Of a stretch of 64,000 nucleotides of DNA, positions 8,012 through 27,802 are shown one piece after another. How positions within the stretch are numbered: position 1 is the stretch's first letter; every line of letters starts with the position of its first letter. The stretch is from IMG/VR virus record IMGVR_UViG_2907202186_000003, positions 64,001 through 128,000 of that record. One strand, 5' to 3'. The notes under the pieces are model-generated. The model was given only the letters and a program-made list of their open reading frames with translations, was not told where the DNA came from and did no database searches. The DNA comes from a virus (Duplodnaviria > Caudoviricetes). Made by a program: the position numbers and the translations under genes.

Positions 8012-8132
8012 ATTTCATCTCCTTTAAATAAATTTACAATAAAAAATAGACCTTTGTATATCCTACAAAGATCATACCTCATGTTTCGTATTTAAACAGG
8101 ATCAACTTTGATGAAATGCCAATTTCAACTAA

Positions 8133-8315
8133 TCAAACTTCTCTGCGTTTAATCTCTCGATTTGTGACAGTATCAAATATTCGATGACCAATTGATAAAA
8201 AATTCATCAATGGACCTAATTGGTTACTTGATACAGAGGTGTTTATCCATACTTCGAGTTTAGTTTTCTCGTCTTTTTCAATTAATTTTTGCAATAAGTA
8301 TCTTTTATTATTCAT
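8133..8315 (-). CDS. Hypothetical protein
   Basis: 60-aa ORF with RBS GAGG. Confidence 0.6.
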   Translation of the reverse strand: MNNKRYLLQKLIEKDEKTKLEVWINTSVSSNQLGPLMNFLSIGHRIFDTVTNREIKRREV

Positions 8316-8426
8316 TGTGACTTTACCTCGCTGTATAAATATTTCAATTTATAATATTATCTGTTAGAATAAACTGGAATAAGCTCCCGCCTTTAATTTA
8401 GGGGAGCTATTTTGTCATGTTTACTT

Positions 8427-8481
8427 TTTGTTACGTTTTTCGTAACAAATTCAATATAAACTTATTTATTTACATTGTCAA
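8427..8481 (-). promoter_or_regulatory. sigmaA promoter with palindromic operator, divergent from the HTH gene
   Basis: TTGACA-17-TATATT (8481-8453); TTTGTTACG-5-CGTAACAAA at 8427-8449. Confidence 0.65.
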
Positions 8482-8511
8482 CCGTTTTTAGTATTCATAT
8501 GGGGGAAATAC

Positions 8512-8718
8512 ATGTCATACTTATTTATCAATCTTCAATACATATTAGATAAGAAGAATATTAGTGCCAGAGAGCTGGCTAAAAGAACTGGTATTCGTCA
8601 TCCTACAATTTCTGAAATGTGCAACAATAGTTCAAAGCATCTGCCACTAAAAAATATAGCGTTAATTTGTGATGAGTTAGAAATCGATGTCTCCGACTTA
8701 CTCATTCTAAAGAAGTAA
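8512..8718 (+). CDS. Cro/C1-type (XRE) HTH regulator
   Basis: ISARELAKRTGIRHPTISEMCNN HTH. Confidence 0.88.
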   Translation: MSYLFINLQYILDKKNISARELAKRTGIRHPTISEMCNNSSKHLPLKNIALICDELEIDVSDLLILKK

Positions 8719-8815
8719 ATAATAAAAGCTCCAGATCTAATTAGACTGGAGCTTACAATAAATAAATCTTCATAAACATACCTCCGATTTATTTATATTC
8801 ACCTCTACTTGTCGT

Positions 8816-9232
8816 CTATCTACTAAACATCCGAGTTGTACTAATTTCCAAAGCTCTCAACAATTGATTTTCGTACTTATGTGGCATTTCAAATAGTTTA
8901 TACATCAATTTGCTTTTTTTATCGATCGTAAAGTGCTGTTCAAACAAAATAACGCTGTCCTTCTTAAATCCTGCATCTGAGGCATTAACGGTAACATGAG
9001 TAGGTATCCTTGCTTTTGTGGAACTGCTTGTTATAGGAGAAACCATTACCAATGGAGAATATCTATTGTTTTTATCATTTGAAATAATAAGTACTGGCCG
9101 CACACCTCCTTGTACAGATGATTTCTCAGGAATCTCTCCCAAATCAGCCAACCAGATTTCAAATTGCTTTACTTCTTCATTATGTACTGTGTTATTCATT
9201 GCTACTGCCATTTTATTAACACTCCTATTCAA
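8816..9232 (-). CDS. mazF: MazF/PemK-family endoribonuclease (orphan)
   Basis: EIWLADLG...QGGVRPVLIISND..N..SP....PITS...IPTHV, NdoA-like; catalytic Arg and Thr present. Confidence 0.9.
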   Translation of the reverse strand: MNRSVNKMAVAMNNTVHNEEVKQFEIWLADLGEIPEKSSVQGGVRPVLIISNDKNNRYSPLVMVSPITSSSTKARIPTHVTVNASDAGFKKDSVILFEQHFTIDKKSKLMYKLFEMPHKYENQLLRALEISTTRMFSR

Positions 9233-9347
9233 TTTTATGTGACACTAAGTAATTGATTCTCCATCTAATATCATTCTATGTTCATTTCTTTATTATTATT
9301 ATCTTTATGTTTATAATTATACCTAAAAAGCCCTCGCCTTACAATAA

Positions 9348-9361
9348 GGAACATTTGTTCT
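9348..9361 (-). promoter_or_regulatory. LexA SOS box upstream of mazF
   Basis: AGAACAAATGTTCC, identical to 3101-3114, next to TTGTAA-17-TATAAT. Confidence 0.7.
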
Positions 9362-9443
9362 TGTCAAGCACTTTTCACAAGCTACGAATATTTAATGCAT
9401 AAGGTATTGACAATTTGGATAAACATGTTAATAGCACAATTTA

Positions 9444-9965
9444 TTGGAGGTTATTAATATGACAAGACAAGACGGATGGACAATAGAGGACGATATCTGT
9501 CTAACTACTACGGTATTAAACTGTATTTCAAATGGTAATACGCAACTACAAGCCTTTGAGATGGTTGCGGAGAAAACTAATAGAACTGCAGCTGCTTGTG
9601 GGTTTAGGTGGAATTCTAACTTGAGAAATCAGTTTGAAAATGAAATTAAAGAAGCCAAATTGAAAAAGAGATCTCATACCCAAAAGCCTTCACATATGCA
9701 CGGCAAGGTGTCTGGAACGCTTTCTACATATGACCAGCCTGATACTCCTTTTGACAACATAATTAGGTCTCTACAGGCATTTAAAGAGCAGTTTGATGAG
9801 ATGCGAATGACAATATTGAATTTACAAAATCGCAATAGTGAACTTGAACAACAGCTAGCATCTAAACCTTCAGTTGAAGTTAATGAAGATATGAAAAATC
9901 TTCTAGAGATAATTAAACGAGCAGAAAAACTTGGTCTCACAAACAAAGAAAAACCTGCCATTTAG
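9444..9965 (+). CDS. rsfA: RsfA-family (sporulation) transcription regulator
   Basis: RQDGWT.EDD..L...VL..I..G.TQL.AFE...RTAAACGFRWNS signature, then coiled coil. Confidence 0.85.
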   Translation: MEVINMTRQDGWTIEDDICLTTTVLNCISNGNTQLQAFEMVAEKTNRTAAACGFRWNSNLRNQFENEIKEAKLKKRSHTQKPSHMHGKVSGTLSTYDQPDTPFDNIIRSLQAFKEQFDEMRMTILNLQNRNSELEQQLASKPSVEVNEDMKNLLEIIKRAEKLGLTNKEKPAI

Positions 9966-10072
9966 GCAGGTTCTTTTAATTTTATATTAGATATGGGTCT
10001 ACACTCATATAAGATATGATTAACTTGTTCCAATACATCTTCCAGGTGCTTTCCGCACTTTTTACAATTCAA
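9962..10072 (-). CDS. 36-aa Zn-finger-like small protein
   Basis: TTG start after AAGGAG; MNCKKCGKHLEDVLEQVNHILYECRP. Confidence 0.45.
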   Translation of the reverse strand: MNCKKCGKHLEDVLEQVNHILYECRPISNIKLKEPA

Positions 10073-10113
10073 ATAAACATTTCTCCTTTGTTTAAGTAAA
10101 ATCTACATTTTAT

Positions 10114-10272
10114 TCAGTCTTCGTCAGTTTCTTCAAATAATACTTTATACCCCTGCTCTGCGAACAAAGATAAAAGTTCTAAAGCCTTATTCTTGTCATC
10201 TATACTCAATTTTACATTAAGAACTTCGAGTTGTGGATCGTCAGTAACTACAATTGTAAGTTTATAGAACAT
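10114..10272 (-). CDS. 52-aa hypothetical protein
   Basis: Manual translation MFYKLTIVVTDDPQLEVLNVK...; RBS GAAGGGG. Confidence 0.55.
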   Translation of the reverse strand: MFYKLTIVVTDDPQLEVLNVKLSIDDKNKALELLSLFAEQGYKVLFEETDED

Positions 10273-10340
10273 GGGAATGCCCCTTCCATTTCATAGTAGT
10301 AATTATATAATAACACCAATCTTCTCAAAAGTAAGTCATT

Positions 10341-10700
10341 CTAACCTGAATACTTATTCGCAGTAATTGGGTAATAAAATATTTCTATTTCCTCACTAAT
10401 AAACCCTCTGCGTTGTGCAGCTAAAAGCGTTTCATACATGTTCTTACGTCCAACTGGATTATCTGTATGCAAATATATCTTATCGACTTGTAATCCGTAT
10501 TCGCAAAAATATTTAACTAAATCATATCCATTTTGAAGCTCATGTCCGTTCTCATCCTCACCCAAGTCATGATCTAAGGTCAGTATATGTACCCTTTGTG
10601 ACTCAAGGATACTTATTGCCTCATGATAGGTTCGCGCTACTACAAAACCCTCTGGGCAATCACGTAGATCGTCTACATATAGGTTTATTTTCTGATCCAT
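10341..10700 (-). CDS. Cyclic-phosphate-processing receiver-like domain protein
   Basis: LYVDDLR..P, LDHDLG, GYD, HTDNPVG motifs; start MDQK after AAGGAAG. Confidence 0.75.
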   Translation of the reverse strand: MDQKINLYVDDLRDCPEGFVVARTYHEAISILESQRVHILTLDHDLGEDENGHELQNGYDLVKYFCEYGLQVDKIYLHTDNPVGRKNMYETLLAAQRRGFISEEIEIFYYPITANKYSG

Positions 10701-10735
10701 TTGTTCTTCCTTTCCCATAAAACTTGCATTTCATC

Positions 10736-11056
10736 TTAAATGTCATTGATGGCCTGTTTTAAAAATGCAATCTTCAATATGCCTTTTTCCAAAGATGCAG
10801 CATAGTATCCTTTATTTTCGCTGGAGTACTGATAATGGATAATTTCGTCTGCCATCTCCTCGGTCATTTCACCTCTATAATATGGGATATCAACTAGCGA
10901 ACCAATTGGAATATCGGAGCTTTTTTTGTTAATGTCAACTCGCTCCAAAATTGTTTTAACCGAGTCATCTAATTTAGACCAGTCAGTGTCTACAATTCTC
11001 ATTTCTAACCCCCTCTCTAATGATGAAACATGCCTTTTATGTCTTTTACTGCTCAT
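10736..11056 (-). CDS. Hypothetical protein
   Basis: ORF track. Confidence 0.6.
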   Translation of the reverse strand: MSSKRHKRHVSSLERGLEMRIVDTDWSKLDDSVKTILERVDINKKSSDIPIGSLVDIPYYRGEMTEEMADEIIHYQYSSENKGYYAASLEKGILKIAFLKQAINDI

Positions 11057-11480
11057 TGAAATACCACATTACATCAGATTGCTCTAATACTTGATACAAT
11101 GCATTTAAATTAGACGACGTTTCTCTAACGTAAATCTCCAATCTGCTGATTTCGTCTCCTGTATATTTTATGATCCGTTTCACTTTCTCATCAATTTCAT
11201 TCCCTAGAAAAGTGTATACATCTAACACATTATCAATGGAGTAAATTAATACCGTATATTGAACATCATTTAAAGGACGAAATGTAAACAAATTATCAGT
11301 AGGTTGTATTCTTTTGCAGTATTCACATACAACTTTATGCTTTTCGCCTTTGTCGTCAATAATTATTCCACCATTTTTGTCTGAGGTAGATAGCTCAACG
11401 ATTGTTCCTTCTATTTGTTGTCCAACATAATCATATTTCACTCTATCACCAAGATATAACCCATACCAACCTCTAGTCAC
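11046..11480 (-). CDS. Hypothetical protein (SH3/KOW-like N-terminus)
   Basis: ORF track; RBS AAGGAG. Confidence 0.65.
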   Translation of the reverse strand: MTRGWYGLYLGDRVKYDYVGQQIEGTIVELSTSDKNGGIIIDDKGEKHKVVCEYCKRIQPTDNLFTFRPLNDVQYTVLIYSIDNVLDVYTFLGNEIDEKVKRIIKYTGDEISRLEIYVRETSSNLNALYQVLEQSDVMWYFNEQ

Positions 11481-11526
11481 TCTATACCACTCCTTATTTT
11501 AGGATTCAAGTGAAATAGCCATTTGA

Positions 11527-12045
11527 TTAAGACTCCGCAGCAAGCAATCCAGCAACACGAGCCAGTTCCTCTTGACTGTGAACAGTGCCACCACTATTCA
11601 TCTGTAAGTACCATTCAAGTACCTCTTTACGAGTCTGAAGGTTGTTAACATGAAAACTCAAACGAATCATCATTGGGATCTTGTCTTGAAATTCATTGTA
11701 GAAATGTCCAAATGCTTTAATTTGGTTTCTAATGAATTTCAAGCATGCTGTAAGGCGTTGCAGTCCATCGACACACACGAACCACCCATCACCATTTCCC
11801 ACAGTGTTCTGCCATTTAGTGTGATTGAAGTATATATCTAATCCTGAGACACCTTCACGCAACAAATGCTCGATATAAAGCTCTTGTTGTTGCTCAGTCC
11901 AGACCTGCCCTCTCTGAAAATCCGGTTCTAACTCTAATCCCATCTCTTCAATATAATCACCTATAGTGCTTTCAAGATACCTTAGAGCTACATCAACAGA
12001 ATAGTTATTGCACTGTATGTATGGTTTAATGCCCTGGAACTTCAT
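11527..12045 (-). CDS. Stand-alone DUF262 (ParB/GmrS-like) protein
   Basis: PDFQRGQVW and VDGLQRLT motifs. Confidence 0.8.
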   Translation of the reverse strand: MKFQGIKPYIQCNNYSVDVALRYLESTIGDYIEEMGLELEPDFQRGQVWTEQQQELYIEHLLREGVSGLDIYFNHTKWQNTVGNGDGWFVCVDGLQRLTACLKFIRNQIKAFGHFYNEFQDKIPMMIRLSFHVNNLQTRKEVLEWYLQMNSGGTVHSQEELARVAGLLAAES

Positions 12046-12065
12046 GTTTTAACCCCCTAAAACGA

Positions 12066-12266
12066 CTATCCATCTTGTTTATCGATGATAAAGTAATCTA
12101 AATCCTCAAGAAACTCTTTAATTAAACGGATCTCAGCTTCTAAAATCAACATCGTAATGCTTTCATTAACTGATAAATCTTCTGTTCCCTTCTTTTTATT
12201 GTGGTAGGGTTTCAAAAGATTTTCTTTTCGTTCAAGTGATCTTTTATACTGTTCAATTAACTCCAT
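12066..12266 (-). CDS. Hypothetical protein
   Basis: ORF track; RBS AAGGAGG. Confidence 0.65.
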   Translation of the reverse strand: MELIEQYKRSLERKENLLKPYHNKKKGTEDLSVNESITMLILEAEIRLIKEFLEDLDYFIIDKQDG

Positions 12267-12308
12267 ATAATAATAGCCTCCTTAAATATAGGTAAAACAG
12301 TCATTTGA

Positions 12309-12668
12309 TCAAGAATCGATCCTATGTTTCTTGAAGTATCCATGAATCACTTCTTCGCTTGGATTATCAATACGTTCATCAGTACTCCATCTAGACCAAC
12401 CATCAGCGCAATAATATGCGATATCTAAAAGGCTTTCAGGTTCTTTACCATAGTGTTGTTTGAAATCCTCTTTCAGTTCACTCATTCCTTCTTCTGGATC
12501 TGAGCCAAAATATTCAGTAAAGCGAATAACTTTTCTTGATAGCAGCTTTTCTCCTTCTTTGAAGGTGTCTAAGAGTATTACTTCAGCGTTCTCCTGATAT
12601 TTTGAGTAATCCTCATTTATCATTTTTACATATCCTACTGTCTCTCGATCCCTATACTCTTTCCACAT
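12309..12668 (-). CDS. Hypothetical acidic protein
   Basis: ORF track; RBS AGGAG. Confidence 0.65.
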   Translation of the reverse strand: MWKEYRDRETVGYVKMINEDYSKYQENAEVILLDTFKEGEKLLSRKVIRFTEYFGSDPEEGMSELKEDFKQHYGKEPESLLDIAYYCADGWSRWSTDERIDNPSEEVIHGYFKKHRIDS

Positions 12669-12687
12669 GATTTCATCTCCTATTTAC

Positions 12688-12918: not shown

Positions 12919-12949
12919 ATAAAATAGTTATTTGACCATGAATTATTTA

Positions 12950-13249: not shown

Positions 13250-13271
13250 GACCTTAACACCTCGTAGTTTT

Positions 13272-14264
13272 TTAAATAGCTTTTAGAACAATGTTTCCTG
13301 CATGATCAATAAATCCAGTGTCATCTTTTTTACTTGAAAATCTAACCAAGGCTAAACCTTCTTTGAATGAATCAATGTCTTCATACTGTGGCTCAACAAT
13401 CCAATTACCAGACTTGTCAAGAACACCAAACGATTCTAAATACCTCTTCTTACCGTTTTTAACTGTGGCAAGCCCTTCACTAAACCAAAAATTCTCGCTT
13501 GCAATATCTTTTACTATAGAATGCTCATACTTATCCATCAACCCAATAACTCTTCTATCTTGTGATCTCGTATTATTCAAAGGGCAATAAGAATACAAAC
13601 CTTCTCCGGCATATCCCAAACTACTATAATCCTCTTTGAAAACTCTTTCTCCATTGCTATTGATTGCATAATATTTTGATTGATCGAAATCATACACCAC
13701 TGCTATACCATTATTAAAACCACTCGACACAGGATGATACTGATTTTTAATAACAACGGAACTGTTTATATTTATGAATCCAACCTTATAGTCTTGTTCA
13801 AATCTAATCAATCCGTCTTGAGGATGGCTTAAAGAATTAAAACTCGGCAACACAACCCATTCACCTTTTTTGTTTATCATTCCATATCTATCATTTTTCT
13901 TCACAATCGAATATCCATTTCTAAAAGGACTGGCGGCTTCATATTTAGGCTCAATTATAAATTCACCACAATCATCTATAAAACCCGCTTTTCCGTCAAT
14001 AACTACATTAACTAACCCTTCGGAGAATCCCCATGAAGCATATATCCCTTTATCAAATTTGCAGTCAATAATAATATCCCCATCTACGTTAATAAACCCC
14101 CATTTTTTAGAGGTATTTTGGAATGGGGCGTATCCCTCAGAGAAGTCTTCAGCGTAAGCAAACTTTGACTCAATTGCGACTTCTCCATATTTATTAATGT
14201 ATCCGTATTTTTTTTCATCTTGAATCAATGCCAAACCATTTGAAAAACCAGATTTATACTTCAC
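13272..14264 (-). CDS. WG-repeat (KWG) protein
   Basis: Repeated FSEGLA.V...K(W/Y)G(F/Y)I...G units. Confidence 0.88.
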   Translation of the reverse strand: MKYKSGFSNGLALIQDEKKYGYINKYGEVAIESKFAYAEDFSEGYAPFQNTSKKWGFINVDGDIIIDCKFDKGIYASWGFSEGLVNVVIDGKAGFIDDCGEFIIEPKYEAASPFRNGYSIVKKNDRYGMINKKGEWVVLPSFNSLSHPQDGLIRFEQDYKVGFININSSVVIKNQYHPVSSGFNNGIAVVYDFDQSKYYAINSNGERVFKEDYSSLGYAGEGLYSYCPLNNTRSQDRRVIGLMDKYEHSIVKDIASENFWFSEGLATVKNGKKRYLESFGVLDKSGNWIVEPQYEDIDSFKEGLALVRFSSKKDDTGFIDHAGNIVLKAI

Positions 14265-14337
14265 ATTAATTCCTCCATATCAAGATTGCTATGTATTTAG
14301 ATTTCGCTAACCCCATGAAATAAACCTTTCACACACT

Positions 14338-14667
14338 CTAGTCCCTTGGATAGTTAACTTCCATTATGTCCATAAATGGCACCTTAGTGATAACACCATC
14401 TTTCTTGATATGCACCTTTCCCGTCCGAGAGTCCATTTGATCGATTTGCCCCCTAACAGACTCTTCCCAACCCCACACGGTTAATACAATTTCTGATTCC
14501 TCTTGGTAGGCTTCGGTGAGTTGATTTCCTAACTCCTCAAGTACAAACTCATCTCTTGTTGGTCTCTTTGCTACCTTAGATTTTGCCATCATTAATGCCC
14601 TCCTAGCTGTCGAATTCAGTACGCAAGAGTTGAAATGGCGACCTAAACGTTTCTGTTTGATCGCCAA
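14338..14667 (-). CDS. yolD: YolD-like family protein (likely starts MMAKSK)
   Basis: RP..DE..LEE....L.EA...G.I..D......I pattern; RBS AGGAGG before MMAK. Confidence 0.65.
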   Translation of the reverse strand: MAIKQKRLGRHFNSCVLNSTARRALMMAKSKVAKRPTRDEFVLEELGNQLTEAYQEESEIVLTVWGWEESVRGQIDQMDSRTGKVHIKKDGVITKVPFMDIMEVNYPRD

Positions 14668-14673: not shown

Positions 14674-15033
14674 TTAATTATTATTCAATCTTTCTGTGAT
14701 TTCTTTTATCTTTGAACGAGCAACATTGAGCTGTTCGCCATCTTTAAAAATAACCATTCCGTTAGCCTCATCAACATATTTCACTTGTTCAAGATTAATC
14801 ATAAGATCTCTATCGGCCTGTAGAAACCCTTTTTCAGCGGAATAATACTCTGCCAAATCTTGAAACGTAGCAACCTGACTATATCTGGCTCCGTTTGTGG
14901 TTGTATATACGGGTACTTTTTGACCCTTAATTATTTTTATTGAAACATGACTCACATCTTCAAGTTTGAAATCTTCAATCGATCCTGTATCATGATTATA
15001 TCCGACCAATTCATTTGTTGTCATCGATGTCAC
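14674..15033 (-). CDS. Second stand-alone LytTR protein
   Basis: FLQADRDLMINLEQVKYVD...VARSK. Confidence 0.7.
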   Translation of the reverse strand: MTSMTTNELVGYNHDTGSIEDFKLEDVSHVSIKIIKGQKVPVYTTTNGARYSQVATFQDLAEYYSAEKGFLQADRDLMINLEQVKYVDEANGMVIFKDGEQLNVARSKIKEITERLNNN

Positions 15034-15225
15034 CTCAAAGGTTATTATTGTATAATTTTACAATACAAAGTTACTTCAGAACAGTACATTGTTTATCTAT
15101 CAGTTATATAAGCATTGTATCACATAAATTTATATTTGTATATTTATTTTATTAATAATTTCAATTCAATCCAGTTGTGTCCCGATGTGCGAACAAACAA
15201 TTTGCCTTTCTCAACTTTACCCCCT

Positions 15226-15420: not shown

Positions 15421-15457
15421 TTAATATTTTTATTTTATTTTATTTGAAAGACTTATT

Positions 15458-15646
15458 TTATGCAGATTCATGTTTCGTCATTTGGACACCATGGTAACTA
15501 ACTTCTACAATATCAATTATCTCAGTTTCTTTATCATTAAACCAGAAATCATCTATCAGTTTTTTCGCATGTATTTCGTTGTTAGCTGTAACGATATGAT
15601 ACTTGGTATCCCCTAAAGCTTTAGTTTCAGCATAATAAATTCTCAT
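15458..15646 (-). CDS. Hypothetical protein
   Basis: ORF track; RBS GAGGAG. Confidence 0.6.
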   Translation of the reverse strand: MRIYYAETKALGDTKYHIVTANNEIHAKKLIDDFWFNDKETEIIDIVEVSYHGVQMTKHESA

Positions 15647-15821: not shown

Positions 15822-15952
15822 TGTCTTTTCAACTCCTTATAAATTACTTCTTTCATCCTATAACCCTGCCTAAAGTCCCAATAAAATCTTCCAATATAAC
15901 CAATTATGCTATATAGTTTATTTATCAAAATTAATAAGACTGGGGTAGACAT

Positions 15953-16453: not shown

Positions 16454-16507
16454 TAATATTTTGGGTGAGGTCTTATTGATCTCACCTTTCTTTATAAAAG
16501 AATCCTT

Positions 16508-16792
16508 TTATACAGACTTTCTCAATTGTCTTTGGCAAAACTGCATCGCCTCGAACAATGTTTCTGTGTCTGCTGTAACATTCTGATAACCAAAGACTTT
16601 TTCATTCACATTGTTACTTGGTAAATCACTGTATACAAATAAAAAACCCCTTACAATCTTCCCCTTTCCTTCACCACAATTGTCATCAGAAACAACCATG
16701 ATATTATATTTACCAACAGGAATGATTAAACTTGCTTCAGCACCATCAGCATTACTTGCAATGATTCGGCCACCCAGTTTGATATTTTCCAT
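16508..16792 (-). CDS. Hypothetical protein
   Basis: ORF track; RBS GAGGAG. Confidence 0.65.
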   Translation of the reverse strand: MENIKLGGRIIASNADGAEASLIIPVGKYNIMVVSDDNCGEGKGKIVRGFLFVYSDLPSNNVNEKVFGYQNVTADTETLFEAMQFCQRQLRKSV

Positions 16793-17165: not shown

Positions 17166-17223
17166 CTCCTGTTTTGCGGTATTTTGTCTACTGTACTTAA
17201 TAAATCCTCATAAAATAATCTTT

Positions 17224-17436
17224 TTATTCAAACTTACTATCTCTAATTAAGACATAAATAAAATCCCTTACTTCTGTATCATCCCATCCCCACTCATCTG
17301 CCAGATCTTTTATCCTATCTGGAATCAAGTTAATAATGGCAGTTATTTGTGCTTCATCGGGAGCAATATTGTTAATATCAATATAGCTGCTTCGAATTTG
17401 ATCTTTTAATTCCCAAGTTCCATCCATATTATTCAA
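17224..17436 (-). CDS. Hypothetical acidic protein
   Basis: ORF track. Confidence 0.6.
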   Translation of the reverse strand: MNNMDGTWELKDQIRSSYIDINNIAPDEAQITAIINLIPDRIKDLADEWGWDDTEVRDFIYVLIRDSKFE

Positions 17437-17467
17437 TCCTCATTTCTACGTAAAATATTCATTTTAA

Positions 17468-17786: not shown

Positions 17787-17822
17787 ATCCTCACCTCCTC
17801 TCAGTGGTTATGGATGAAAGGA

Positions 17823-18056
17823 TTATTTAATTACAAATTCTATTTCCTTATATTCAAACTTATCACCATGTCTTGAATCATAGAACTTTTCCCAAGCTAG
17901 CAGATCCTCTTCTTTTTCTGTTTCACTAAATACCATTGATTCAATTAAGTTGTCAGTATATTCACCGACTTTTCCAATCCATACATTTCCTTCTACACTC
18001 TGGATGCTGCACCACTTAATAAATTTATCTCCAACTTTGATTACATATCTGCTCAC
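17823..18056 (-). CDS. Hypothetical protein
   Basis: ORF track; RBS GGGAGTGA. Confidence 0.65.
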   Translation of the reverse strand: MSRYVIKVGDKFIKWCSIQSVEGNVWIGKVGEYTDNLIESMVFSETEKEEDLLAWEKFYDSRHGDKFEYKEIEFVIK

Positions 18057-18088
18057 TATGTATCACTCCCCATGAAAGGATCATTTCA

Positions 18089-18457
18089 TCAATACTTCAA
18101 TGCTTTTCCCTTGCCTATGGTCAATTTCCATGCAAGTAAACATCCTTCTTCAAGTTCTTGTTTGTCAGTAAAACACATATCACACTGCCCGTTTCTAAAA
18201 ATCTCGCACTGTCTCTCAACAATGTTATGAAGAGTTTTTCTTTTGATAATTCTAGCAGCAGTTCCCTTAATATATCGTTCCTCGGTGTAAACTGTTATGT
18301 ATTCTGGATCATTTTGCAGCTCTAAAGTACTTCTTTGTGGTTTAACTGTTTTTTCAAACCGTGCGGCGAACATGTAAACACGATTATTAAAGTCATCATT
18401 TACGTACACAGCCCTCATTGGAGCAGTTACATTTGTATCTTCCTCAATCTGATACAC
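18089..18457 (-). CDS. Hypothetical protein
   Basis: ORF track. Confidence 0.55.
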   Translation of the reverse strand: MYQIEEDTNVTAPMRAVYVNDDFNNRVYMFAARFEKTVKPQRSTLELQNDPEYITVYTEERYIKGTAARIIKRKTLHNIVERQCEIFRNGQCDMCFTDKQELEEGCLLAWKLTIGKGKALKY

Positions 18458-19103: not shown

Positions 19104-19140
19104 AAAAAATCACTCCTCATTAAAATATAGTTTCATCAAC

Positions 19141-19401: not shown

Positions 19402-20037
19402 TCATCCTTTATATTCTGTATCGCTATTCAAAATAGGATCGAAATATTTTTCCTCGGCTCGTTTACGAGCTTTTATAGCATCTTCCTTTTCGGAAAAATA
19501 CCCTAGAGATATTTGTTTCCCCTTAAATCCAATGTGTGCCGTCCATTTTTGACGGGATTCATTCCATCGTACACCCTTGTGTCCACTTTTATTGCCTTTA
19601 TGGAGCTTTGCCTTCAAAGCGGTTTTCCTCGTCCCATCCACACGGTCAGTTTTTTCATGCTCTCTTGCACCTATATCACGTTTTTCCTCTCTATTACACC
19701 CACAACTCTTATAATACCCAGCCCGCAGGCTGGCCCCGAGAACATATATAACTTCCCCACACTTGCAACGACATTCCCAAAGCCTTGTTCCGTTTGCCCC
19801 TCTTTTGTCGCTTAGTCGGATAACCTTCAAATCACCAAAATCCATGTCAGACAAGTCTTTCATTCTTGATGTGGTCCTATGGCTGCCATATTCCAATTCA
19901 GCGTCTTTTCGCGCTTGTACGGCGTCCTCGACATCAGTGAAATAGCCTAAATATTTTCGTTTTTTATTTACAAATATATAAGCACGATACTTGCCTTTGC
20001 GGCTGTCATAACTAACGTCTTTGTGATCATCTATCAT
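19402..20037 (-). CDS. AP2-domain DNA-binding protein (two AP2 domains, CxC..C motif)
   Basis: GV.W....KW.A.I...GK...LG.F....A..AR..AE motif twice; no clear HNH. Confidence 0.8.
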   Translation of the reverse strand: MIDDHKDVSYDSRKGKYRAYIFVNKKRKYLGYFTDVEDAVQARKDAELEYGSHRTTSRMKDLSDMDFGDLKVIRLSDKRGANGTRLWECRCKCGEVIYVLGASLRAGYYKSCGCNREEKRDIGAREHEKTDRVDGTRKTALKAKLHKGNKSGHKGVRWNESRQKWTAHIGFKGKQISLGYFSEKEDAIKARKRAEEKYFDPILNSDTEYKG

Positions 20038-20540: not shown

Positions 20541-20552
20541 AAAAATGTAAGT

Positions 20553-20584
20553 GTCGCACCCCGTGCGAGTGCGTGGATTGAAAT
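20553..20584 (+). CRISPR. Solitary type I-C CRISPR repeat unit (not an array)
   Basis: GTCGCACCCCGTGCGAGTGCGTGGATTGAAAT, 32 nt, with I-C hallmark ends GTCGC and GCGTGGATTGAAAT. Confidence 0.85.
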
Positions 20585-20606
20585 ATTCTTATAGTATTTC
20601 AGCAGG

Positions 20607-21141: not shown

Positions 21142-21272
21142 TTCTTGAAAATATTATAATTTCCATACACAAATAACTCCAAGCAACAAAACTAACTCGC
21201 TTGGAGTTTGATAAAATTAATCTTTCATTAAGAAAGACAACCCCGAAAATAAGATTGTCTTTGCAATATAAA

Positions 21273-21558: not shown

Positions 21559-22053
21559 TTAGGAGTTACTTTTTAGTTTTACCTTATATTTTTCAGCTAG
21601 TTCTTTTACTTTATCCTGATATTCTCGCATCATCTTCCTTGCCTCTGAAAGCTTCTCATTCGCTTCAGTAATAGTCTTTATATCCTGTTCTTCTAGAGCA
21701 TAAGCGATTGTTGTTAAAGCTGAATTCTGACGATTTAATCCGTCTATATAAATATTATGTACTTCTCGTAACTCTTTTGATTCAATTTTAACACTTTCAA
21801 CTTTTCCAGTGAACTCGTTATAACCAGGTATTACTTTGTCCACCAAAACGTTGTAGGTTGTTTCGTCATCCGTAAAATTTGCTCCTGTTACACTTTCATA
21901 GGTATTAACTAACTCCTGTTCTTCAGTAAACAGAGGAACCATTTGTTCGTTAATATAAGACAGTAATTCTTCTGTTACCGGGTCAGTTTTGCTACACCCC
22001 ATTAGAACATTAAAGAGCAACATAGTGCTGATAAGAATTATTAACTTTTTCAA
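21559..22053 (-). CDS. Lipoprotein (helical bundle)
   Basis: Signal peptide with lipobox LMGC. Confidence 0.8.
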   Translation of the reverse strand: MKKLIILISTMLLFNVLMGCSKTDPVTEELLSYINEQMVPLFTEEQELVNTYESVTGANFTDDETTYNVLVDKVIPGYNEFTGKVESVKIESKELREVHNIYIDGLNRQNSALTTIAYALEEQDIKTITEANEKLSEARKMMREYQDKVKELAEKYKVKLKSNS

Positions 22054-22189
22054 AAGAAAACCTCCTAGTCTTAAATACCTTTTATCTTGTAGATTATAAT
22101 GGAAAATAGTTCAAAAGCAATAGGGTATTTGGAACTAATTACATCTAATTCATTTCACAACTCTTCTTATTTTTCATGAAATAACTGTT

Positions 22190-22435
22190 TTATCCAACTT
22201 TATCTTCTATTACCTGACAGACTGTGTGTGTAAGTACTAAAAATGTTAATGTAAATAATAAAAACGGAAAACTATTGTGCCATCCTTCTTGAAATACACA
22301 CTGTGTATCTAATACTCCAAAAACAAAACAAGCGATACCAAATAATACAAGTCTACATTTAGATAATTTCTCCATTGTCCATATCTCCTTTTTGTAAAAT
22401 TCTGCTTTTAACAGCTTCCTAATTAATAACTCCAA
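22190..22435 (-). CDS. Small 2-TM membrane protein (likely starts MEKLSK)
   Basis: Two hydrophobic stretches; internal RBS AAGGAG. Confidence 0.55.
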   Translation of the reverse strand: MELLIRKLLKAEFYKKEIWTMEKLSKCRLVLFGIACFVFGVLDTQCVFQEGWHNSFPFLLFTLTFLVLTHTVCQVIEDKVG

Positions 22436-22738: not shown

Positions 22739-22770
22739 TTCTCTTTCTCACCTCTTATAAAATACTGTTT

Positions 22771-23058
22771 TTATTGGAAGTACATTTCCTCGATTTTACG
22801 TTTAAATCGCGCTAAATTATTTTTTGCTTGTTGGTATGATCCATTCAAACCCTTCAACTCCAACGAATCAATTTGAGCACCAAATTGATTAAACACCGTT
22901 ACCGATAAATCAAAATCTCCAAAAAACTTATGATTTTCATTAAATATATTTTCTTTCCCTACTATTTCTGCCTGAGCTTTATAGTTGTTATTGCTTAAAT
23001 ACTCCAGCGAACAATTTTTTATATCAAGTTTCTCAGTTGCCCATTCCATCTTTACCAC
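22771..23058 (-). CDS. Hypothetical protein
   Basis: ORF track; RBS AAGGAG. Confidence 0.6.
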   Translation of the reverse strand: MVKMEWATEKLDIKNCSLEYLSNNNYKAQAEIVGKENIFNENHKFFGDFDLSVTVFNQFGAQIDSLELKGLNGSYQQAKNNLARFKRKIEEMYFQ

Positions 23059-23077
23059 TCCTTATAAAATCGTTGTT

Positions 23078-23359
23078 TCACTTAGATTCCTTAAATACCT
23101 GGTCATAATTTCCTTCAACATCTACTAAATGCAAATATGAATAAATCTGTGCAACAATATCTTTAATCTCTTTTCTTTGTCGTAGAACAAAGTTACGGTA
23201 CAATTCATCTTTTAATAGTTCTTCTCCCACCAGACCGGAGAGCATCTCAATTTTACTTGTGATATCTGCAATCTCATTTCCCATTGCCTTCACTTTATTT
23301 CTTGCATATCCTGTAAAGTGGATCTCTTTTTCAATGCTTTCCAATTGATCTCGATTCAT
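23078..23359 (-). CDS. Hypothetical protein
   Basis: ORF track; RBS AAGGAG. Confidence 0.6.
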   Translation of the reverse strand: MNRDQLESIEKEIHFTGYARNKVKAMGNEIADITSKIEMLSGLVGEELLKDELYRNFVLRQRKEIKDIVAQIYSYLHLVDVEGNYDQVFKESK

Positions 23360-23389
23360 TTAGTTAACTCCTTATATTATGTATTTTTA

Positions 23390-23485
23390 TTAAATAACCG
23401 TTTTAATAATGATAAGCCCCCATAAACCGATGCACAGTGAATACAAGATTGCATTTTCAAACGTTAGATGCTTCATAATTCTCAT
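23390..23485 (-). CDS. 31-aa hydrophobic peptide
   Basis: MRIMKHLTFENAILYSLCIGLWGLIIIKTVI; RBS GGAGG. Confidence 0.5.
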   Translation of the reverse strand: MRIMKHLTFENAILYSLCIGLWGLIIIKTVI

Positions 23486-23762
23486 GTGATTTCCTCCACC
23501 TAATCTATAAAGCGTTGCTGTTCTTTATCATGTGAAAGTAACCTTTCATACAGAGAATTCATATCGTTCACATATAAATCGAGTAAAAAATTTAAATAGA
23601 TAAACTCCTCAATGGATGCAATTTGCTGGTCTATTGCATCCATGATCTCATCAGGTAAAAGCGCAGGAAGCAATATACTGGAGGTTTCCTGCGCTTACCT
23701 GATAATTAACGTATGTACATTTTATATCGCTCTCTCTATGCATTGTTGTGGTCTCATAAACT

Positions 23763-24005
23763 CTACCAAAAACATGATCCAGTATTATTATATGTTACCT
23801 GATGAATTCCTTTTGTTTTAAGGAAAGCCTCCAATTTACTATAAAATTCATTTGAGGGATTAAGAACGAAACTGCTAACAAACGCATTATCAGTTATGCC
23901 TATATCAACTTTAAATCCGTTTCGTCTTAGCTTAATTATTGATCCCATGTTTTTAAGCGTTTGATTAAATTCATTTATATATTCTTCAGTAATTTCACTC
24001 ATCAA
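23763..24005 (-). CDS. Hypothetical protein
   Basis: ORF track; RBS AAGGAG. Confidence 0.6.
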   Translation of the reverse strand: MMSEITEEYINEFNQTLKNMGSIIKLRRNGFKVDIGITDNAFVSSFVLNPSNEFYSKLEAFLKTKGIHQVTYNNTGSCFW

Positions 24006-24090
24006 ACTTCCACTCCTTTTTAATATGAATCGATTTTCAGGATACCATCTCTTAAAGTTGTAGTAAAGACGAATAGGAGAATTATATCCC

Positions 24091-24591
24091 CTATTCTAAT
24101 CCGCACTTATCACAAAATTCATCCCATGCCTTATCATATTTCTTACTTCCCGATCTACCTCCAAACTCTTTAGACCACATGTCTGCTACAATTTGAAATT
24201 GTCTATCAGTTAGGTCTTCGATTTCTTTCATGAATAACTCTTGTGCTATGCTGTAGCAAAATCCCTTTTCCTGTATTCTTATTTCGATACCACTTGGTGG
24301 ATAATATCGCTTATTGTCTTTATCCATCAGATAATCGATAAGCCATCCGTTTTTCTCATAATAGTACTCGCGCGTTTTCTGTTCTTCTGTTTCTCTTGCC
24401 TCAATTTGTGCGTGTCTGTCTGCCTTAAACTTTATGTATTCGTCAACATTTCTTTTGTTTCCCATTTCCCAAACTTTGATGCCTGACACAATCTGCACAC
24501 ATTCGCTACCATATGGCTTACCTTGATACTCGAAAATGTTCTTGATACCTTGACCACATCTCGTACAATTAGAAATGATTCCTGTTTCCAT
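24091..24591 (-). CDS. Hypothetical protein with N-terminal Cys cluster
   Basis: CTRCG...YGSEC; RBS GGAGG. Confidence 0.7.
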   Translation of the reverse strand: METGIISNCTRCGQGIKNIFEYQGKPYGSECVQIVSGIKVWEMGNKRNVDEYIKFKADRHAQIEARETEEQKTREYYYEKNGWLIDYLMDKDNKRYYPPSGIEIRIQEKGFCYSIAQELFMKEIEDLTDRQFQIVADMWSKEFGGRSGSKKYDKAWDEFCDKCGLE

Positions 24592-24718
24592 TTTTGACCG
24601 CCTCCGTGTTTTAACTTATAACTAATTATAACACGGGTTATGCATTTACACAATAATATGTTTATATTTATTTTATTGTTTTTACTTAAAATAAGCATTT
24701 CATCGTGTTTTATAAACC

Positions 24719-24934
24719 TTATGTATCACTGTTGGAATTCTCTATTAGAATTTCACAAGCACTATCAAATACAATTTCTTTCGACAACTGATATCGCTCT
24801 TTATTCTTCTCATAATGCACTACAAACATAGGATAAAGTTGCAATTCACTACAACCTTCTTTCATGAGTCTCATCTTTAATACTTTTAGATGAGTTCTTA
24901 AATGCTCAACAGTTTTTATCTCCAAGTTAACCAC
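24719..24934 (-). CDS. Hypothetical protein
   Basis: ORF track. Confidence 0.5.
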   Translation of the reverse strand: MVNLEIKTVEHLRTHLKVLKMRLMKEGCSELQLYPMFVVHYEKNKERYQLSKEIVFDSACEILIENSNSDT

Positions 24935-24951
24935 ACCTTATTACATTTATT

Positions 24952-25173
24952 TTATTTACTGCTATAACCAGAAGAACGAATTATGCTTTCAATCGAATTT
25001 ATATTGTTTCTCTCTAAAATAATGTTTCTTACCCAATTCGGCCTATTTAATTTATTTTTATAAAAGGCTTTTTGGAATACCTTTATGTTTCCTTCGCCCG
25101 TAAATATGGCAATTTTACAAGGTGTATTTTGCATTGCTTTTATTGTTCCTTCATAAATCTTAAATAATTTCAT
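24952..25173 (-). CDS. Hypothetical basic protein
   Basis: ORF track; RBS AGGAG. Confidence 0.6.
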   Translation of the reverse strand: MKLFKIYEGTIKAMQNTPCKIAIFTGEGNIKVFQKAFYKNKLNRPNWVRNIILERNNINSIESIIRSSGYSSK

Positions 25174-25197
25174 TTTTATTTCTCCTATAATTAATAA

Positions 25198-25344
25198 CTA
25201 CCATTCTCTACCGTTTCTGACCGCTTCTAAATTTTCTTTTGCGTGGTTAATGTATTCTTCTTTTCGAGAATCATTTCCATAAGCACTAACTACCTTTTCC
25301 AATTGTTTTTCATAATACTTAATTAGCTCTTCTCTTGTTTTCAT
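25198..25344 (-). CDS. 48-aa hypothetical protein
   Basis: Manual translation MKTREELIKYYEKQLEKV...GREW; RBS GAGGGGG. Confidence 0.6.
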   Translation of the reverse strand: MKTREELIKYYEKQLEKVVSAYGNDSRKEEYINHAKENLEAVRNGREW

Positions 25345-25402
25345 TTTTTCATTCCCCCTCTAATTTGTTGGTGAAACAAGCGTTACTTAGATACTTTTTA
25401 CT

Positions 25403-25642
25403 CTAGATCCCTTCAACCTCAATTACTCTATCAATCATTTCTTCCAGGTCCAAGACAGACTTTTCATTAACTTTAATTTGATTTTTATATACTTCAATTG
25501 TGCATTTTTCTGTAAGTATTGTTGCTGTAGGTGCAATTACAAATGTTGTACTGTCTCCTGCTACTTCGTGACCATAACCATATGTATTCAATTTCTCGCT
25601 GATTGAGTTGACCAGTTTTTCAATGCTCTTCATCGGTATCAC
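25403..25642 (-). CDS. Hypothetical protein
   Basis: ORF track. Confidence 0.6.
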   Translation of the reverse strand: MIPMKSIEKLVNSISEKLNTYGYGHEVAGDSTTFVIAPTATILTEKCTIEVYKNQIKVNEKSVLDLEEMIDRVIEVEGI

Positions 25643-25669
25643 TTCCTTATAATTTGTATAATTACTTTA

Positions 25670-25807
25670 TTAAATGTTATATCTAAGTGGATAGATTTTT
25701 TCCTTCCTGTGGCAATATACATAAATAGTATTATTGTGAAATCCTATTGTTTCCATTTTTGTCCCAGCGATATGAAAAATGAAACCTTTCTCCGTTATGT
25801 TTTTCAT
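25670..25807 (-). CDS. 45-aa hypothetical protein
   Basis: Manual translation MKNITEKGFIFHIAG...; RBS GGAGGGG. Confidence 0.5.
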   Translation of the reverse strand: MKNITEKGFIFHIAGTKMETIGFHNNTIYVYCHRKEKIYPLRYNI

Positions 25808-25845
25808 CTTTTGTCCCCTCCAGTTTAGTTGAAACAAGAATTTTA

Positions 25846-26157
25846 TCAATTGTCGATCATTTGCAGATTATTTCTTGTAATAAAAGCTTTAACTTCTGAA
25901 ACACCCCAAGCTTCTTTTCCCCAATCTTTTATATTTTCACTTTCAAAATTCTCTACTCTATTAAATTCAACCGAAACTCCTTCTTCAATGAGTTTATCAA
26001 GGCACGAAGAATGTCTGTATGTCTCCATTTGATAAAATTCTTTATGCTCATCTTCGATAAGTAGACCTTTTTTTTCTATAAAGCAGAGTTTGATTTTTTT
26101 CTGCTCTAATTCTGATAATACATCTTTAAAATCCACAATAATCTTTTTATTTTTCAT
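25846..26157 (-). CDS. Hypothetical protein
   Basis: ORF track; RBS GGAGG. Confidence 0.65.
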   Translation of the reverse strand: MKNKKIIVDFKDVLSELEQKKIKLCFIEKKGLLIEDEHKEFYQMETYRHSSCLDKLIEEGVSVEFNRVENFESENIKDWGKEAWGVSEVKAFITRNNLQMIDN

Positions 26158-26218
26158 TTCTTATTCCTCCGTGTTCTATGAAATCACTCTTTCACTTACT
26201 GTTTTAGAAGGACACATA

Positions 26219-26698
26219 CTATTTTATATGTGTCCACAACTTACCCGAGTTCTTACTTTGACATTTCTTGCAAACATGTGCACCATCAGGTGGTAAATCT
26301 AATGGATCACCTTGAAGCAAATTAGGTCTATCAAGATTGTAACTTTGACAAGATGGATATCTATTATTCTCGATTTCAAATCCAATTTTATGCCACGTTC
26401 CTGTTTTTGATTGCATCCACTTTTTAAGTCCAGCAGATTCCTCAATTGCTTTACTTGTATTTTTATTTTCTTTTTTTGCTTCTATATTTTGACGTTTGAG
26501 TAAATCTTGTTTCGCTCTGTTCAGATCACGCTGCAGTATGCCAATTTCAACTGCTGCTTTTCTTTCTTCAGAACCTGCAGGAAATGTTGCCCAGCACTCT
26601 AAAGGGTCAGCTCCTAAATTTTTTAGAGTTTCAACTTGTACTAAGATTTTCGATTCATATCTTTCAACCTTTTTAACGGCTGCCTCAAGTTTGTTCAC
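26219..26698 (-). CDS. Hypothetical protein with C-terminal H..C..CxxC Zn motif
   Basis: ORF track; RBS GGAGG. Confidence 0.65.
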   Translation of the reverse strand: MNKLEAAVKKVERYESKILVQVETLKNLGADPLECWATFPAGSEERKAAVEIGILQRDLNRAKQDLLKRQNIEAKKENKNTSKAIEESAGLKKWMQSKTGTWHKIGFEIENNRYPSCQSYNLDRPNLLQGDPLDLPPDGAHVCKKCQSKNSGKLWTHIK

Positions 26699-26760
26699 TT
26701 TGTCAACCCTCCATAATCGGATAAAATGAGTATTTCTTTTAACGATTTAGTTATATTATT

Positions 26761-26789
26761 ATTATATTTACTTTATAATAAAATGTCAA
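26761..26789 (-). promoter_or_regulatory. Consensus sigmaA promoter facing the accessory array
   Basis: TTGACA-17-TATAAT. Confidence 0.8.
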
Positions 26790-26818
26790 GCCTTTGTTTT
26801 CTTTTTTTAAAGCGAAAT

Positions 26819-27286
26819 TCAAGTAAAATATTGATAATCAAATTCAATATTTAGCTCAATTTGCTCTATTGTCGGCTCCCAATATATTAAATTACCTTGA
26901 TCTTTATAATAAGCTACGTTGTTTTTTATAAAGAATGTCTTATTCGAATAAAATCCACAATTTCTCATATCCTCCAATAAATATTTTAAATCGTTACAGT
27001 CATCATTGAACAATAAACCATTTATATAGTTATAGTATTTAGCAAGATTATAAATTAATATCTCGTCTAAGCAGAATTCTAGATTTGGATGAAGTAAAAC
27101 CTTATTCAAATTTATAAAAATTGTATCCTCTTCAAAAATCACATAACTATATCTATATTTCATTTTATTAGGAATGAATATTTTTCCTTTATATTCAAGA
27201 CTACATATCTTCTTTGCGAGAAATTTAGTCTTTCTTTCTAACATTGGAATGGAATTATCATCTTTCGAGAGTAATGTTTGAATCAA
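26819..27286 (-). CDS. Hypothetical protein, possibly a degenerate SprT-like fold
   Basis: EILIYNLAKYY where HExxH would be expected. Confidence 0.5.
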   Translation of the reverse strand: MIQTLLSKDDNSIPMLERKTKFLAKKICSLEYKGKIFIPNKMKYRYSYVIFEEDTIFINLNKVLLHPNLEFCLDEILIYNLAKYYNYINGLLFNDDCNDLKYLLEDMRNCGFYSNKTFFIKNNVAYYKDQGNLIYWEPTIEQIELNIEFDYQYFT

Positions 27287-27451
27287 AATATTCTCTCCTT
27301 TTATTAAAGATTTTACTTAGTGTTCAAATATACAATGTTACTAATTGTACCATTGTATATTTGTCTTGCCACCTAACCGCTCAATGTCAGCGGTTAACGC
27401 TCTAGGCTTAAGGCTCAATCCCGATATGTCGGGAACCGCCTAGACGGTTTA

Positions 27452-27724
27452 TTATACATTCTGTTTTAGTAACAGATAGTTATAACTTGCTAATTCATTA
27501 AGGTCAATTCCCTTTGATTCAATTAAATTTTTGATCTGTTCTTTAAAGGTATTCAGTCCAGTGATTCGGTCTTCTTTATTTGCAATTTCTTCGGTGTTTT
27601 GGATTTCTTGTATCGCAAAGCTAATATCGATCATAAATCTATATAATTCTACTGGAGTACCTTTTAATTTAACCTCTAATTCAATATTAGTTTCAAAATC
27701 ATTTTTCATTGTAATTACCTCCAT
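27452..27724 (-). CDS. Hypothetical protein
   Basis: ORF track; likely starts MKNDF after GGAGG. Confidence 0.6.
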   Translation of the reverse strand: MEVITMKNDFETNIELEVKLKGTPVELYRFMIDISFAIQEIQNTEEIANKEDRITGLNTFKEQIKNLIESKGIDLNELASYNYLLLKQNV

Positions 27725-27802
27725 TTTTTAGTCATATCATACCACTAATATGCAACATCAGTAATAATGAAATGAGGATTTCAATCTGATTTAATTCAAG
27801 TA

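Follow-up and report, generated by a model that had tools for sequence, protein, structure and literature searches.

The prophage and its intergenic palindromes

The DNA analyzed here, a stretch of 64,000 nucleotides (the window; positions 64,001 to 128,000 of IMG/VR record IMGVR_UViG_2907202186_000003), carries many copies of an 18-bp palindromic site, two 6-bp inverted arms around a 6-bp spacer, and it is this site and its probable role in gene exchange between phages that concern us. The window corresponds to contig C11:228723-292722 in a 6.6-Mb genome of 47-53% G+C, and falls inside a low-G+C island (31-40%) of ~140 kb (C11 ~164-304 kb) made up of ~100 kb of minus-strand genes and ~35 kb of plus-strand late genes. 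Judged from its predicted proteins, the island is a distant SPbeta-like prophage. Identity to the SPbeta counterparts is 56% for the DNA polymerase YorL, 64% for YorG and 60.7% for YomM, compared with 26-29% for YopP, YopQ and MrpR (YopR) and 22-34% for the virion proteins. A BLASTP search of the whole prophage (E 1e-5) found no homologues of SPbeta YonO (the phage RNA polymerase) or AimR and no full-length homologue of the SprA integrase; the only resemblance was that of a 164-amino-acid open reading frame (ORF) at 21559-22053 to the N-terminus of this serine recombinase. The interval 8111-27784, which a first-pass annotation made from the sequence had singled out as an integron-like cassette array, gave zero megablast matches against 50,697 phage records, and 40 related host genomes returned scattered gene-sized matches only.

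All 13 copies of the strict pattern RTRAAA-N6-TTTHAY that had been listed in this interval match at their coordinates. Among the 14 copies listed with one mismatch, 13 do have exactly one, the other (23389) having two mismatches on the plus pattern and one on its mirror, and the copies called decayed carry two to three mismatches each, except that at 26721, which has just one. Two further strict copies lie in the interval, one at 11023, which had gone unlisted, and one at 19119, which is strict on the minus strand and had been counted as a one-mismatch copy. Over both strands of the window the pattern has 35 matches against 2.13 expected (at most 6 in 100 shuffles). The related pattern ATRAAA-N6-TTTYAT occurs in the prophage 40 times exactly and 90 times at up to one mismatch, against 0.7 and 13 in Markov controls, and the excess is found at the 6-bp spacer only, the same arms at spacer lengths of 0-5 and 7-15 giving 0-2 exact copies. 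The 40 exact copies in the 142-kb prophage compare with 7 in the remaining 6.49 Mb of the genome. Weak flanks, A.TCT.R and ..AGA on opposite sides, stretch the symmetry to ~28 bp in an 11-6-11 layout, both in the prophage sites and in the SPbeta group. Inverted arms around a spacer of fixed length, 6-8 bp, are the geometry of a tyrosine-recombinase core site, as the first reading had recognized.

The array is considerably larger than that reading supposed. Rather than being limited to 8111-27784, it covers ~95 kb of minus-strand genes (C11 ~164-257 kb), and in place of a single late-region copy we found three strict ones, at 40240, 55333 and 56392; site density is high in the early/accessory half and low among the late genes. 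Relatives were collected through YomM homologues, which led to 71 IMG/VR loci. Two complete relatives of 164-167 kb, G041 and G042, have 27 exact and ~75 near copies each, and in SPbeta itself there are 14 exact copies and 49 near ones, most of them ATAAAA-N6-TTTTAW, where other spacer lengths give ~12 near copies. The SPbeta sites are likewise intergenic, some of them between convergent and divergent genes. The motif is family-wide: SPbeta and all the relatives examined carry it.

The position of the sites relative to the genes is as stereotyped as had been claimed, downstream of a minus-strand stop codon and with a ribosome-binding site close by. About 80 copies are preceded by a stop codon and followed by a ribosome-binding site; at ~29/81 sites the stop codon, or a second one in frame, is supplied by the TRA within the arm. 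In transcript orientation a AGAAAGGAG-type ribosome-binding site follows 2-5 nt after the site, and the start codon lies 15-25 nt from it. Promoter-like sequences occur in the window at the frequency of shuffled sequence (87 versus 87.4, four of them strong), which is consistent with the earlier view that the units are mostly promoterless. The genes are co-oriented (on the minus strand throughout the array), have their own ribosome-binding sites and few promoters, and would therefore be expressed without a promoter of their own. A tRNA-like unit that had been proposed was not borne out, as ARAGORN finds no tRNA in the window and an Rfam search finds a Pistol ribozyme only. This ribozyme (27367-27434, minus strand) matches its model at full length with 38.8 bits against a gathering score of 34.5, and lies within the early transcript directly downstream of the ORF at 27452-27724.

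Spacers, cargo and homology breakpoints

The spacer had been described as fixed in length and variable in sequence. It does differ between sites, but at each position it is conserved across phages, with the order of the sites kept. In the clade of the window, whose genes are so divergent that DNA comparison detects almost nothing, nearly every site of the interval has a counterpart with an identical spacer in three partial genomes (G043, G044 and G045) and in G041 and G042. Numbered by rank along the array, sites 4-7, 11-15, 19, 21, 22, 24-26, 28 and 30-35 reappear in register, apart from one exception, and the rank order over the interval is the same in four phages. The window prophage shares 23 spacers with G041, 22 of them collinear, and 16 with G042, all collinear, and the latter two share 49 with each other, 48 collinear; by comparison, reversed spacers give 1-4 and shuffled orders give collinear runs of 7-13.

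What lies between the sites is, for the most part, different DNA. When the DNA between identical pairs of addresses was compared by blastn and tblastx (95 comparisons), 65 segments were unrelated, 15 partly related and 15 homologous, and for the window against its three relatives (47 comparisons) the corresponding counts were 40, 6 and 1. The lengths of this inter-address DNA vary widely, so these are replacements and not fast-diverged orthologues. Between sites of the same address, identity drops to background (0.25-0.35) directly outside the 18-mer, and arm positions 1, 3, 16 and 18 are as scrambled as in unrelated sites, with the spacers intact. Orthologous site pairs were also defined independently of the spacer, by flanking homology between G041 and G042 at high-scoring segment pair (HSP) identities below 90%; their spacers are identical at 6/6 positions in 16 of 21 pairs, versus 36% expected (P ~2e-4), with identities of 93% for the spacer, 90% for the arms and 84% for the HSP. 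Between SPbeta and the clade of the window the arms are common and shared addresses stand at the chance level (3 versus 3). These comparisons argue that the spacer is a position-specific address, conserved across phages while the genes between the sites are replaced.

No spacer is repeated among the 90 sites of the prophage, although by a rough estimate only ~1.5 repeats would arise by chance, so that avoidance of repeats is not shown. Adjacent sites tend to have similar spacers: 17 of 80 neighboring pairs share at least 4/6 bases, compared with 6.4% of all pairs, a level reached in 0/5000 shuffles and confined to the 18-mer (for example 17814/18072, 16494/17210 and 26721/27767). This likeness may be a trace of site duplication upon insertion; we do not build on it because SPbeta and G042 do not show it and G041 does so only weakly.

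The replaced segments can be resolved at their edges in the Spbetaviruses, where the ~45-kb early regions of SPbeta, phi3T, Goe13, SPbetaL8, SPbetaL4 and SPbetaL2 were compared. The check that the first-pass annotation had suggested on related phages came out in its favor, in that homology breakpoints map onto the 18-mers: 32% of 309 clustered breakpoints lie within 15 bp of a site center, as against 1.8% of random positions. Homology sets in between site positions -7 and +2 and stops at 18-19, and therefore the entire 18-mer belongs to the conserved side, whichever flank that is. A breakpoint is found at 79% of the co-directional gene boundaries with a site and at 23% of those without, and within the accessory segment the figures are 93% and 37%, or 93% and 33% once the site-free gaps are limited to at least 18 nt.

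Across the same six genomes, sites with the same spacer are syntenic yet join two to five different left and right contexts; multiple contexts were seen at 19 of 31 same-address sites, and on both flanks at 13, whereas chance matches to the motif within conserved genes have just one. One address is found in the combinations left-A/right-1, A/2, B/2 and B/3, with divergence beginning at the 18-mer boundaries. A crossover inside the site is required for every new pairing of left and right, the contexts being unrelated, and at least 61 such junction events are needed at 19 sites among the six phages. Replaced segments with a site at both edges in both genomes are rare among these viruses (1 of 71). 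We conclude with considerable confidence that the sites are in-register exchange junctions; their positions, and those of the candidate proteins discussed below, are collected in Table 1.

Table 1. Sites, candidate site-binding proteins and the MrpR-like protein in the window. Among the relatives named, G041 and G042 are complete genomes and G043, G044 and G045 partial ones.
Feature	Position	Strand	Remarks
One-mismatch copy	8111..8128		Downstream end of the originally noted interval
Probable junction site	10096..10113		Address common to G044, G045
Probable junction site	10717..10734		Address common to G043, G044, G045
Probable junction site, strict, newly found	11023..11040		Address common to G043, G044
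Probable junction site	11510..11527		Address common to G043-G045; G045 homology begins exactly at site
Probable junction site	12292..12309		Address common to G041, G044, G045
Probable junction site	12919..12936		Address common to G041-G045
Probable junction site	14315..14332		Full 18-mer identical in G043-G045; YolD-like gene begins at edge
Probable junction site	15444..15461		Address common to G041-G043, G045
Probable junction site	15839..15856		Address common to G041, G043-G045
Probable junction site	16494..16511		Address common to G041, G043-G045
Probable junction site	17210..17227		Address common to G043-G045
Probable junction site	17450..17467		Address common to G043-G045
Probable junction site	17814..17831		16/18 identical to neighboring site 18072; flanks unrelated
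Probable junction site	18072..18089		Address common to G043-G045
Probable junction site	19119..19136		Same-rank address of relatives differs by one base
Probable junction site	21211..21228		Address common to G043-G045
Probable junction site	22176..22193		Address common to G042-G045
Probable junction site	22394..22411		Address also in G044 at a different rank; sole non-collinear case
Probable junction site	22757..22774		Address common to G042, G044, G045
Probable junction site	23064..23081		Address common to G043-G045
Strict copy, status uncertain	23532..23549		Inside a called ORF; no shared address found
Probable junction site	24686..24703		Address common to G043
Probable junction site	25829..25846		Address common to G043
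Probable junction site	26178..26195		Address common to G041, G043
Probable junction site, one mismatch	26721..26738		Address common to G041-G043
One-mismatch copy	27767..27784		Upstream end of the originally noted interval
Site	55333..55350		20 nt upstream of YomM-like gene
Site	56392..56409		6 nt past YomM-like stop codon
YomM-like tyrosine-recombinase-fold protein, 338 aa	55370..56386	+	60.7% identical to SPbeta YomM
YopP-like tyrosine-recombinase-fold protein, 346 aa	35713..36753	-	Second candidate
MrpR-like protein	5069..6076	-	Pfam MrpR_N_CB + MrpR_C_cat; SPbeta homologue binds SPBRE, not the present site
YopQ-like protein	6106..7422	-	DndB/ParB-like fold (PMC8612738); possible further DNA binder

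Some of the cargo can be assigned. Pfam matches identify a cREC_REC receiver domain (10341-10718), a GmrSD_N nuclease domain (11527-12045), a WG beta-repeat protein (13272-14264) and an AP2 domain (19402-20037), all on the minus strand; most of the remaining cargo has no family and no homologue among the relatives examined. The segments 14331-14641 and 14935-15050 have a counterpart on the chromosome of this genome (C1:1466885-1467346; 86% identity) and further ones, at 67-80% identity, across many genomes in the genus. A YolD-like gene (Pfam) is contained in the first segment, whose homology begins at the edge of the site at 14315-14332; a slot may have taken up host or prophage DNA here. At ~20550-20590 one slot contains a solitary CRISPR-repeat-like stretch resembling arrays in several related genomes (e.g. 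G028:C18 and G014:C137), whose units are ~66 bp apart at 91-94% identity. A PemK/MazF-like toxin gene (8816-9232, minus strand) adjoins the MrpR/YopQ-like lysogeny genes. In the Spbetaviruses, the anti-defence gene Gad1 is annotated in the variable accessory segment of SPbetaL4 (L015:26931-27818) and SPbetaL2 (L016:29409-30302).

Candidate proteins and competing explanations

Three tyrosine-recombinase-fold proteins, resembling YomM, YopP and MrpR, are encoded in the window. YomM is far better conserved (60.7%) than the neighboring proteins (22-34%), and in 64 of the 71 related loci a site lies no more than 600 bp downstream of yomM, often overlapping its stop codon; recombinase genes frequently adjoin their sites. 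The YomM family keeps the catalytic R, K and H, and the Y in at least 90% of its members. From these sequence features the YomM-like protein is the most likely candidate catalyst, with the YopP-like protein second. Against the integron integrase model TIGR02249 the YomM-like protein scores 26.1 bits, over 45 residues only, where the cut-off is 265; the same model detects nothing in the YopP-like or MrpR-like proteins, and with Xer family models the phage proteins score far below the cut-offs. In Bacillus lineages (L031-L035 and L055-L070) and in SPbeta (39852-39902), the yomM-proximal site is followed by an intrinsic terminator whose 3' half complements the left arm and spacer of the site, making an alternative pairing possible; this is not so in the window.

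On balance, we think it probable that the 18-mers serve as sites, in duplex DNA, for in-register gene swaps between related SPbeta-like phages. That a dedicated site-specific recombinase performs the exchange is a tentative step beyond this, and so is the mechanism we propose for it, in which one recombinase-fold protein would read the common arms at 50-100 sites and the spacer would limit strand exchange to the matching address in another genome, a natural multi-slot cassette exchange that keeps gene order. Here the binding of a phage protein to the arms, the identity of the enzyme and the choice of partner by spacer are all inferred. The common arms would be bound by a single phage-encoded dimeric protein. 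If a cell came to contain two phages with a common address set, or a phage and a resident prophage sharing one, exchange would be restricted to sites with identical spacers; a single exchange would swap everything on one side of the site, and two would trade the cargo lying between a pair of addresses, much as engineered cassette exchange does with heterospecific lox/FRT sites. Such a mechanism would explain in-register exchange despite unrelated neighbors and the preserved gene order, as well as the absence of repeated addresses and the clade-specific address sets. New cargo perhaps enters by one-ended, break-induced joining, as insertions with a site at one edge suggest, to be spread later by clean slot exchange.

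Several observations weigh against this proposal. In the YomM family the second catalytic arginine is replaced by an invariant lysine (HxxK rather than HxxR), and although the YopP-like protein has R, K, H and Y, its HxxR alignment is ambiguous. The paralogous MrpR has been proven to be a repressor without catalytic activity (PMC10516654). At just 6 bp, the strongly conserved arms are short for Xer/Cre-type sites. In seven resolved Spbetavirus insertions only one edge has a good site, the opposite edge carrying a half-site or none, which fits break-induced or illegitimate joining better than a clean two-site cassette exchange. In the diverged pair G041/G042, breakpoints occur at 37% of the site boundaries against 26% of the others (P = 0.04), a modest excess. 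Counts are not independent across related genomes, although the breakpoint effect in the Spbetaviruses is large, and the gene calls are crude ORF calls.

The main alternative, which would need no dedicated enzyme, is that the palindromes are conserved linkers, bound by a phage protein with some other main job (a transcription roadblock, silencer, insulator or DNA compaction), and that general recombination crosses within them. RecA or a phage annealing protein (a YorG/AAA_24-type gene is present, its product 64% identical to that of SPbeta) would then use the 18-bp identity, the one stretch that otherwise unrelated neighbors have in common, and in-register exchange would follow. Junctions at sites and one-ended insertions would both be expected, modular shuffling mediated by PeSLs provides a precedent (PMC2839356, PMC4122927), and the repressor MrpR shows that recombinase folds have been turned into plain DNA binders in this phage family (PMC10516654); the HxxK of YomM in place of the catalytic HxxR also speaks for this explanation. 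However, 18 bp is far under the usual minimum for RecA-type recombination, yet the junction events number at least 61 at 19 sites; nor does this explanation account for a spacer better kept than the degenerate arm positions, or for arms that are common everywhere and would invite out-of-register exchange. We therefore regard conserved linkers as possible but rather unlikely. We give much less weight to a pure operator or stoperator array, in which a repressor would silence the prophage through the intergenic sites and the link to mosaic junctions would be a by-product of gene boundaries. A palindromic, dimer-type site without arm covariation, dense in the early/accessory half and sparse in late genes, would suit a repressor, and yopP, yopQ and yopR are transcribed in lysogens (bioRxiv 10.1101/2021.11.22.469490). 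But the operator system known from these phages is another one: SPbeta MrpR binds SPBRE and not the present palindrome, and the ten peaks of its chromatin affinity purification sequencing (ChAP-seq) are all SPBRE (PMC10516654). Upstream regions of SPBRE genes in SPbeta share a different, promoter-located sequence in nine of ten cases (upstream of yorE, aimR, yonT, yonP, yonX, yorZ, yosX, yopV and yopM), and we rejected this identity for the sites, and with it the first-pass alternative of a repressor operator array in so far as it meant the known MrpR/SPBRE system. The SPbeta literature that we searched, which did not include the 1999 genome paper defining SPBRE, does not mention the palindrome. 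An operator array also leaves the excess of accessory-segment breakpoints at site boundaries unexplained (93% versus 33-37% without sites, gap length matched), and has no place for the conservation, position by position, of an uncontacted spacer beside unrelated genes.

A signal at the RNA level, with the transcribed palindrome forming a hairpin ahead of the ribosome-binding site for processing, stability or translation, would agree with the stereotyped position between stop codon and ribosome-binding site, 15-25 nt ahead of the start codon. The arms do not covary, however. The bases at positions 3 and 16 assort without regard to each other (G,T 25; A,C 18; A,T 15; G,C 15), with A.C mismatches at chance frequency (14.3 expected), and in ten mirrored position pairs (six in arm and flank, three within the spacer, and 3/16) pairable combinations equal expectation. 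The half-sites thus vary independently, which is the mark of a dimeric protein on duplex DNA. The stem, moreover, would be six A-U-rich pairs, sites in SPbeta also lie between convergent and divergent genes, and loops that are position-specific and conserved across phages are not required of an RNA signal. RNA-processing sites, the other alternative raised at first, are by this evidence improbable, and RNA signals generally are slightly less probable to us than an operator array. A true integron, in which an IntI integrase captures attC-bearing cassettes at attI, would show co-oriented, mostly promoterless small genes separated by inverted-repeat sites, as this array does. We found no IntI (26 bits versus 265, over 45 residues only) and no attC-like sites, the present ones being 18-28 bp with ATRAAA arms as against the 57-141 bp, R/L boxes and GTTRRRY cores of attC. 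Addresses here keep their order, whereas an attC site moves together with its cassette, and the resolved insertions include no two-ended cassettes. Membership of the integron family is accordingly close to negligible. From the original idea of an integron-like platform for gene capture and shuffling, we retain sites that bound exchangeable units and an integron-like expression logic.

Comparison with known systems

Phage genomes are mosaic, and linker-guided exchange of modules has been debated since the modular theory of the 1970s. Convincing examples of linkers are few, the PeSLs of T4-type phages being one, and here a family that includes the laboratory model SPbeta has ordered, individually addressed linkers between which the cargo is nearly fully turned over among relatives. 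Much of the cargo of SPbeta-like phages consists of defence and counter-defence genes, with Gad1 and Gad2 among that of the SPbetaL phages. If the proposal is correct, the address set would define which phages can swap genes with each other, and the many orthogonal sites could be put to use in the engineering of large phage genomes. A direct test would be possible in Bacillus subtilis, for which suitable phages and mutants already exist.

The PeSLs are likewise short repeated intergenic motifs beside small, mostly orphan genes in hyperplastic regions, and insertions, deletions and replacements between close relatives map to them (PMC2839356, PMC4122927), as the end points of such changes fall in the motif here. 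They differ in being composite promoter-terminators of ~50 nt or more that are alike everywhere and act through general recombination (PMC2839356, PMC4122927). The present site is an 18-28-bp palindrome without promoter consensus or the arm covariation of a hairpin, and each of its ordered copies has a unique, conserved 6-mer.

In heterospecific lox/FRT systems, inverted arms bind the recombinase, spacers of 6-8 bp must match, and the cassette between two sites can be swapped in register. The present sites resemble these in their common arms and differing spacers; if a recombinase does read the addresses, they would be a natural counterpart of this kind of cassette exchange. The lox/FRT systems are man-made, with 13-bp arms and a proven enzyme, whereas the present arms measure 6 bp (11 at most if the weak flanks are counted), there are ~50-100 addresses per genome and the enzyme is a candidate only. 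Integrons have in common with the array the co-oriented promoterless genes read from upstream promoters, with recombination sites at the boundaries; they depend on IntI, attC and folded single-strand substrates, whereas here nothing points to substrates of that kind, and the sites are fixed addresses of a platform that do not belong to a mobile cassette. The Xer/dif system recalls the ~28-bp 11-6-11 layout, the A/T-rich inner arms and the Xer-like phage proteins, and elements that exploit Xer have inserts flanked by one good and one degenerate site. However, dif is one site per replicon and is served by host XerCD.

Within the same phage family, SPBRE is also a repeated palindrome bound by a tyrosine-recombinase-fold protein, MrpR, but it is a repressor operator of another sequence, present in ~10 copies in promoters (PMC10516654). 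The present site has 50-100 copies between stop codon and ribosome-binding site and zero MrpR ChAP-seq peaks. In cluster A mycobacteriophages the stoperators, to which the immunity repressor binds, are asymmetric 13-mers that follow the direction of transcription and do not differ from copy to copy. Like the present sites they occur by the dozen as short intergenic sequences in long co-directional operons, often touching stop or start codons, but the sites described here are palindromic with position-specific centers, and to our knowledge stoperators do not act as addressed junctions. In shufflons (Rci and the sfx sites of IncI plasmids), one tyrosine recombinase rearranges coding segments through many short clustered sites. 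The sfx sites share the spacer, vary in one arm and drive inversions within one gene, whereas here the arms are shared, the spacers differ and whole genes are exchanged between genomes. Site-linked modular shuffling itself has a precedent in the PeSLs; what the sequence comparisons appear to add is the spacer as a conserved address at ordered sites.

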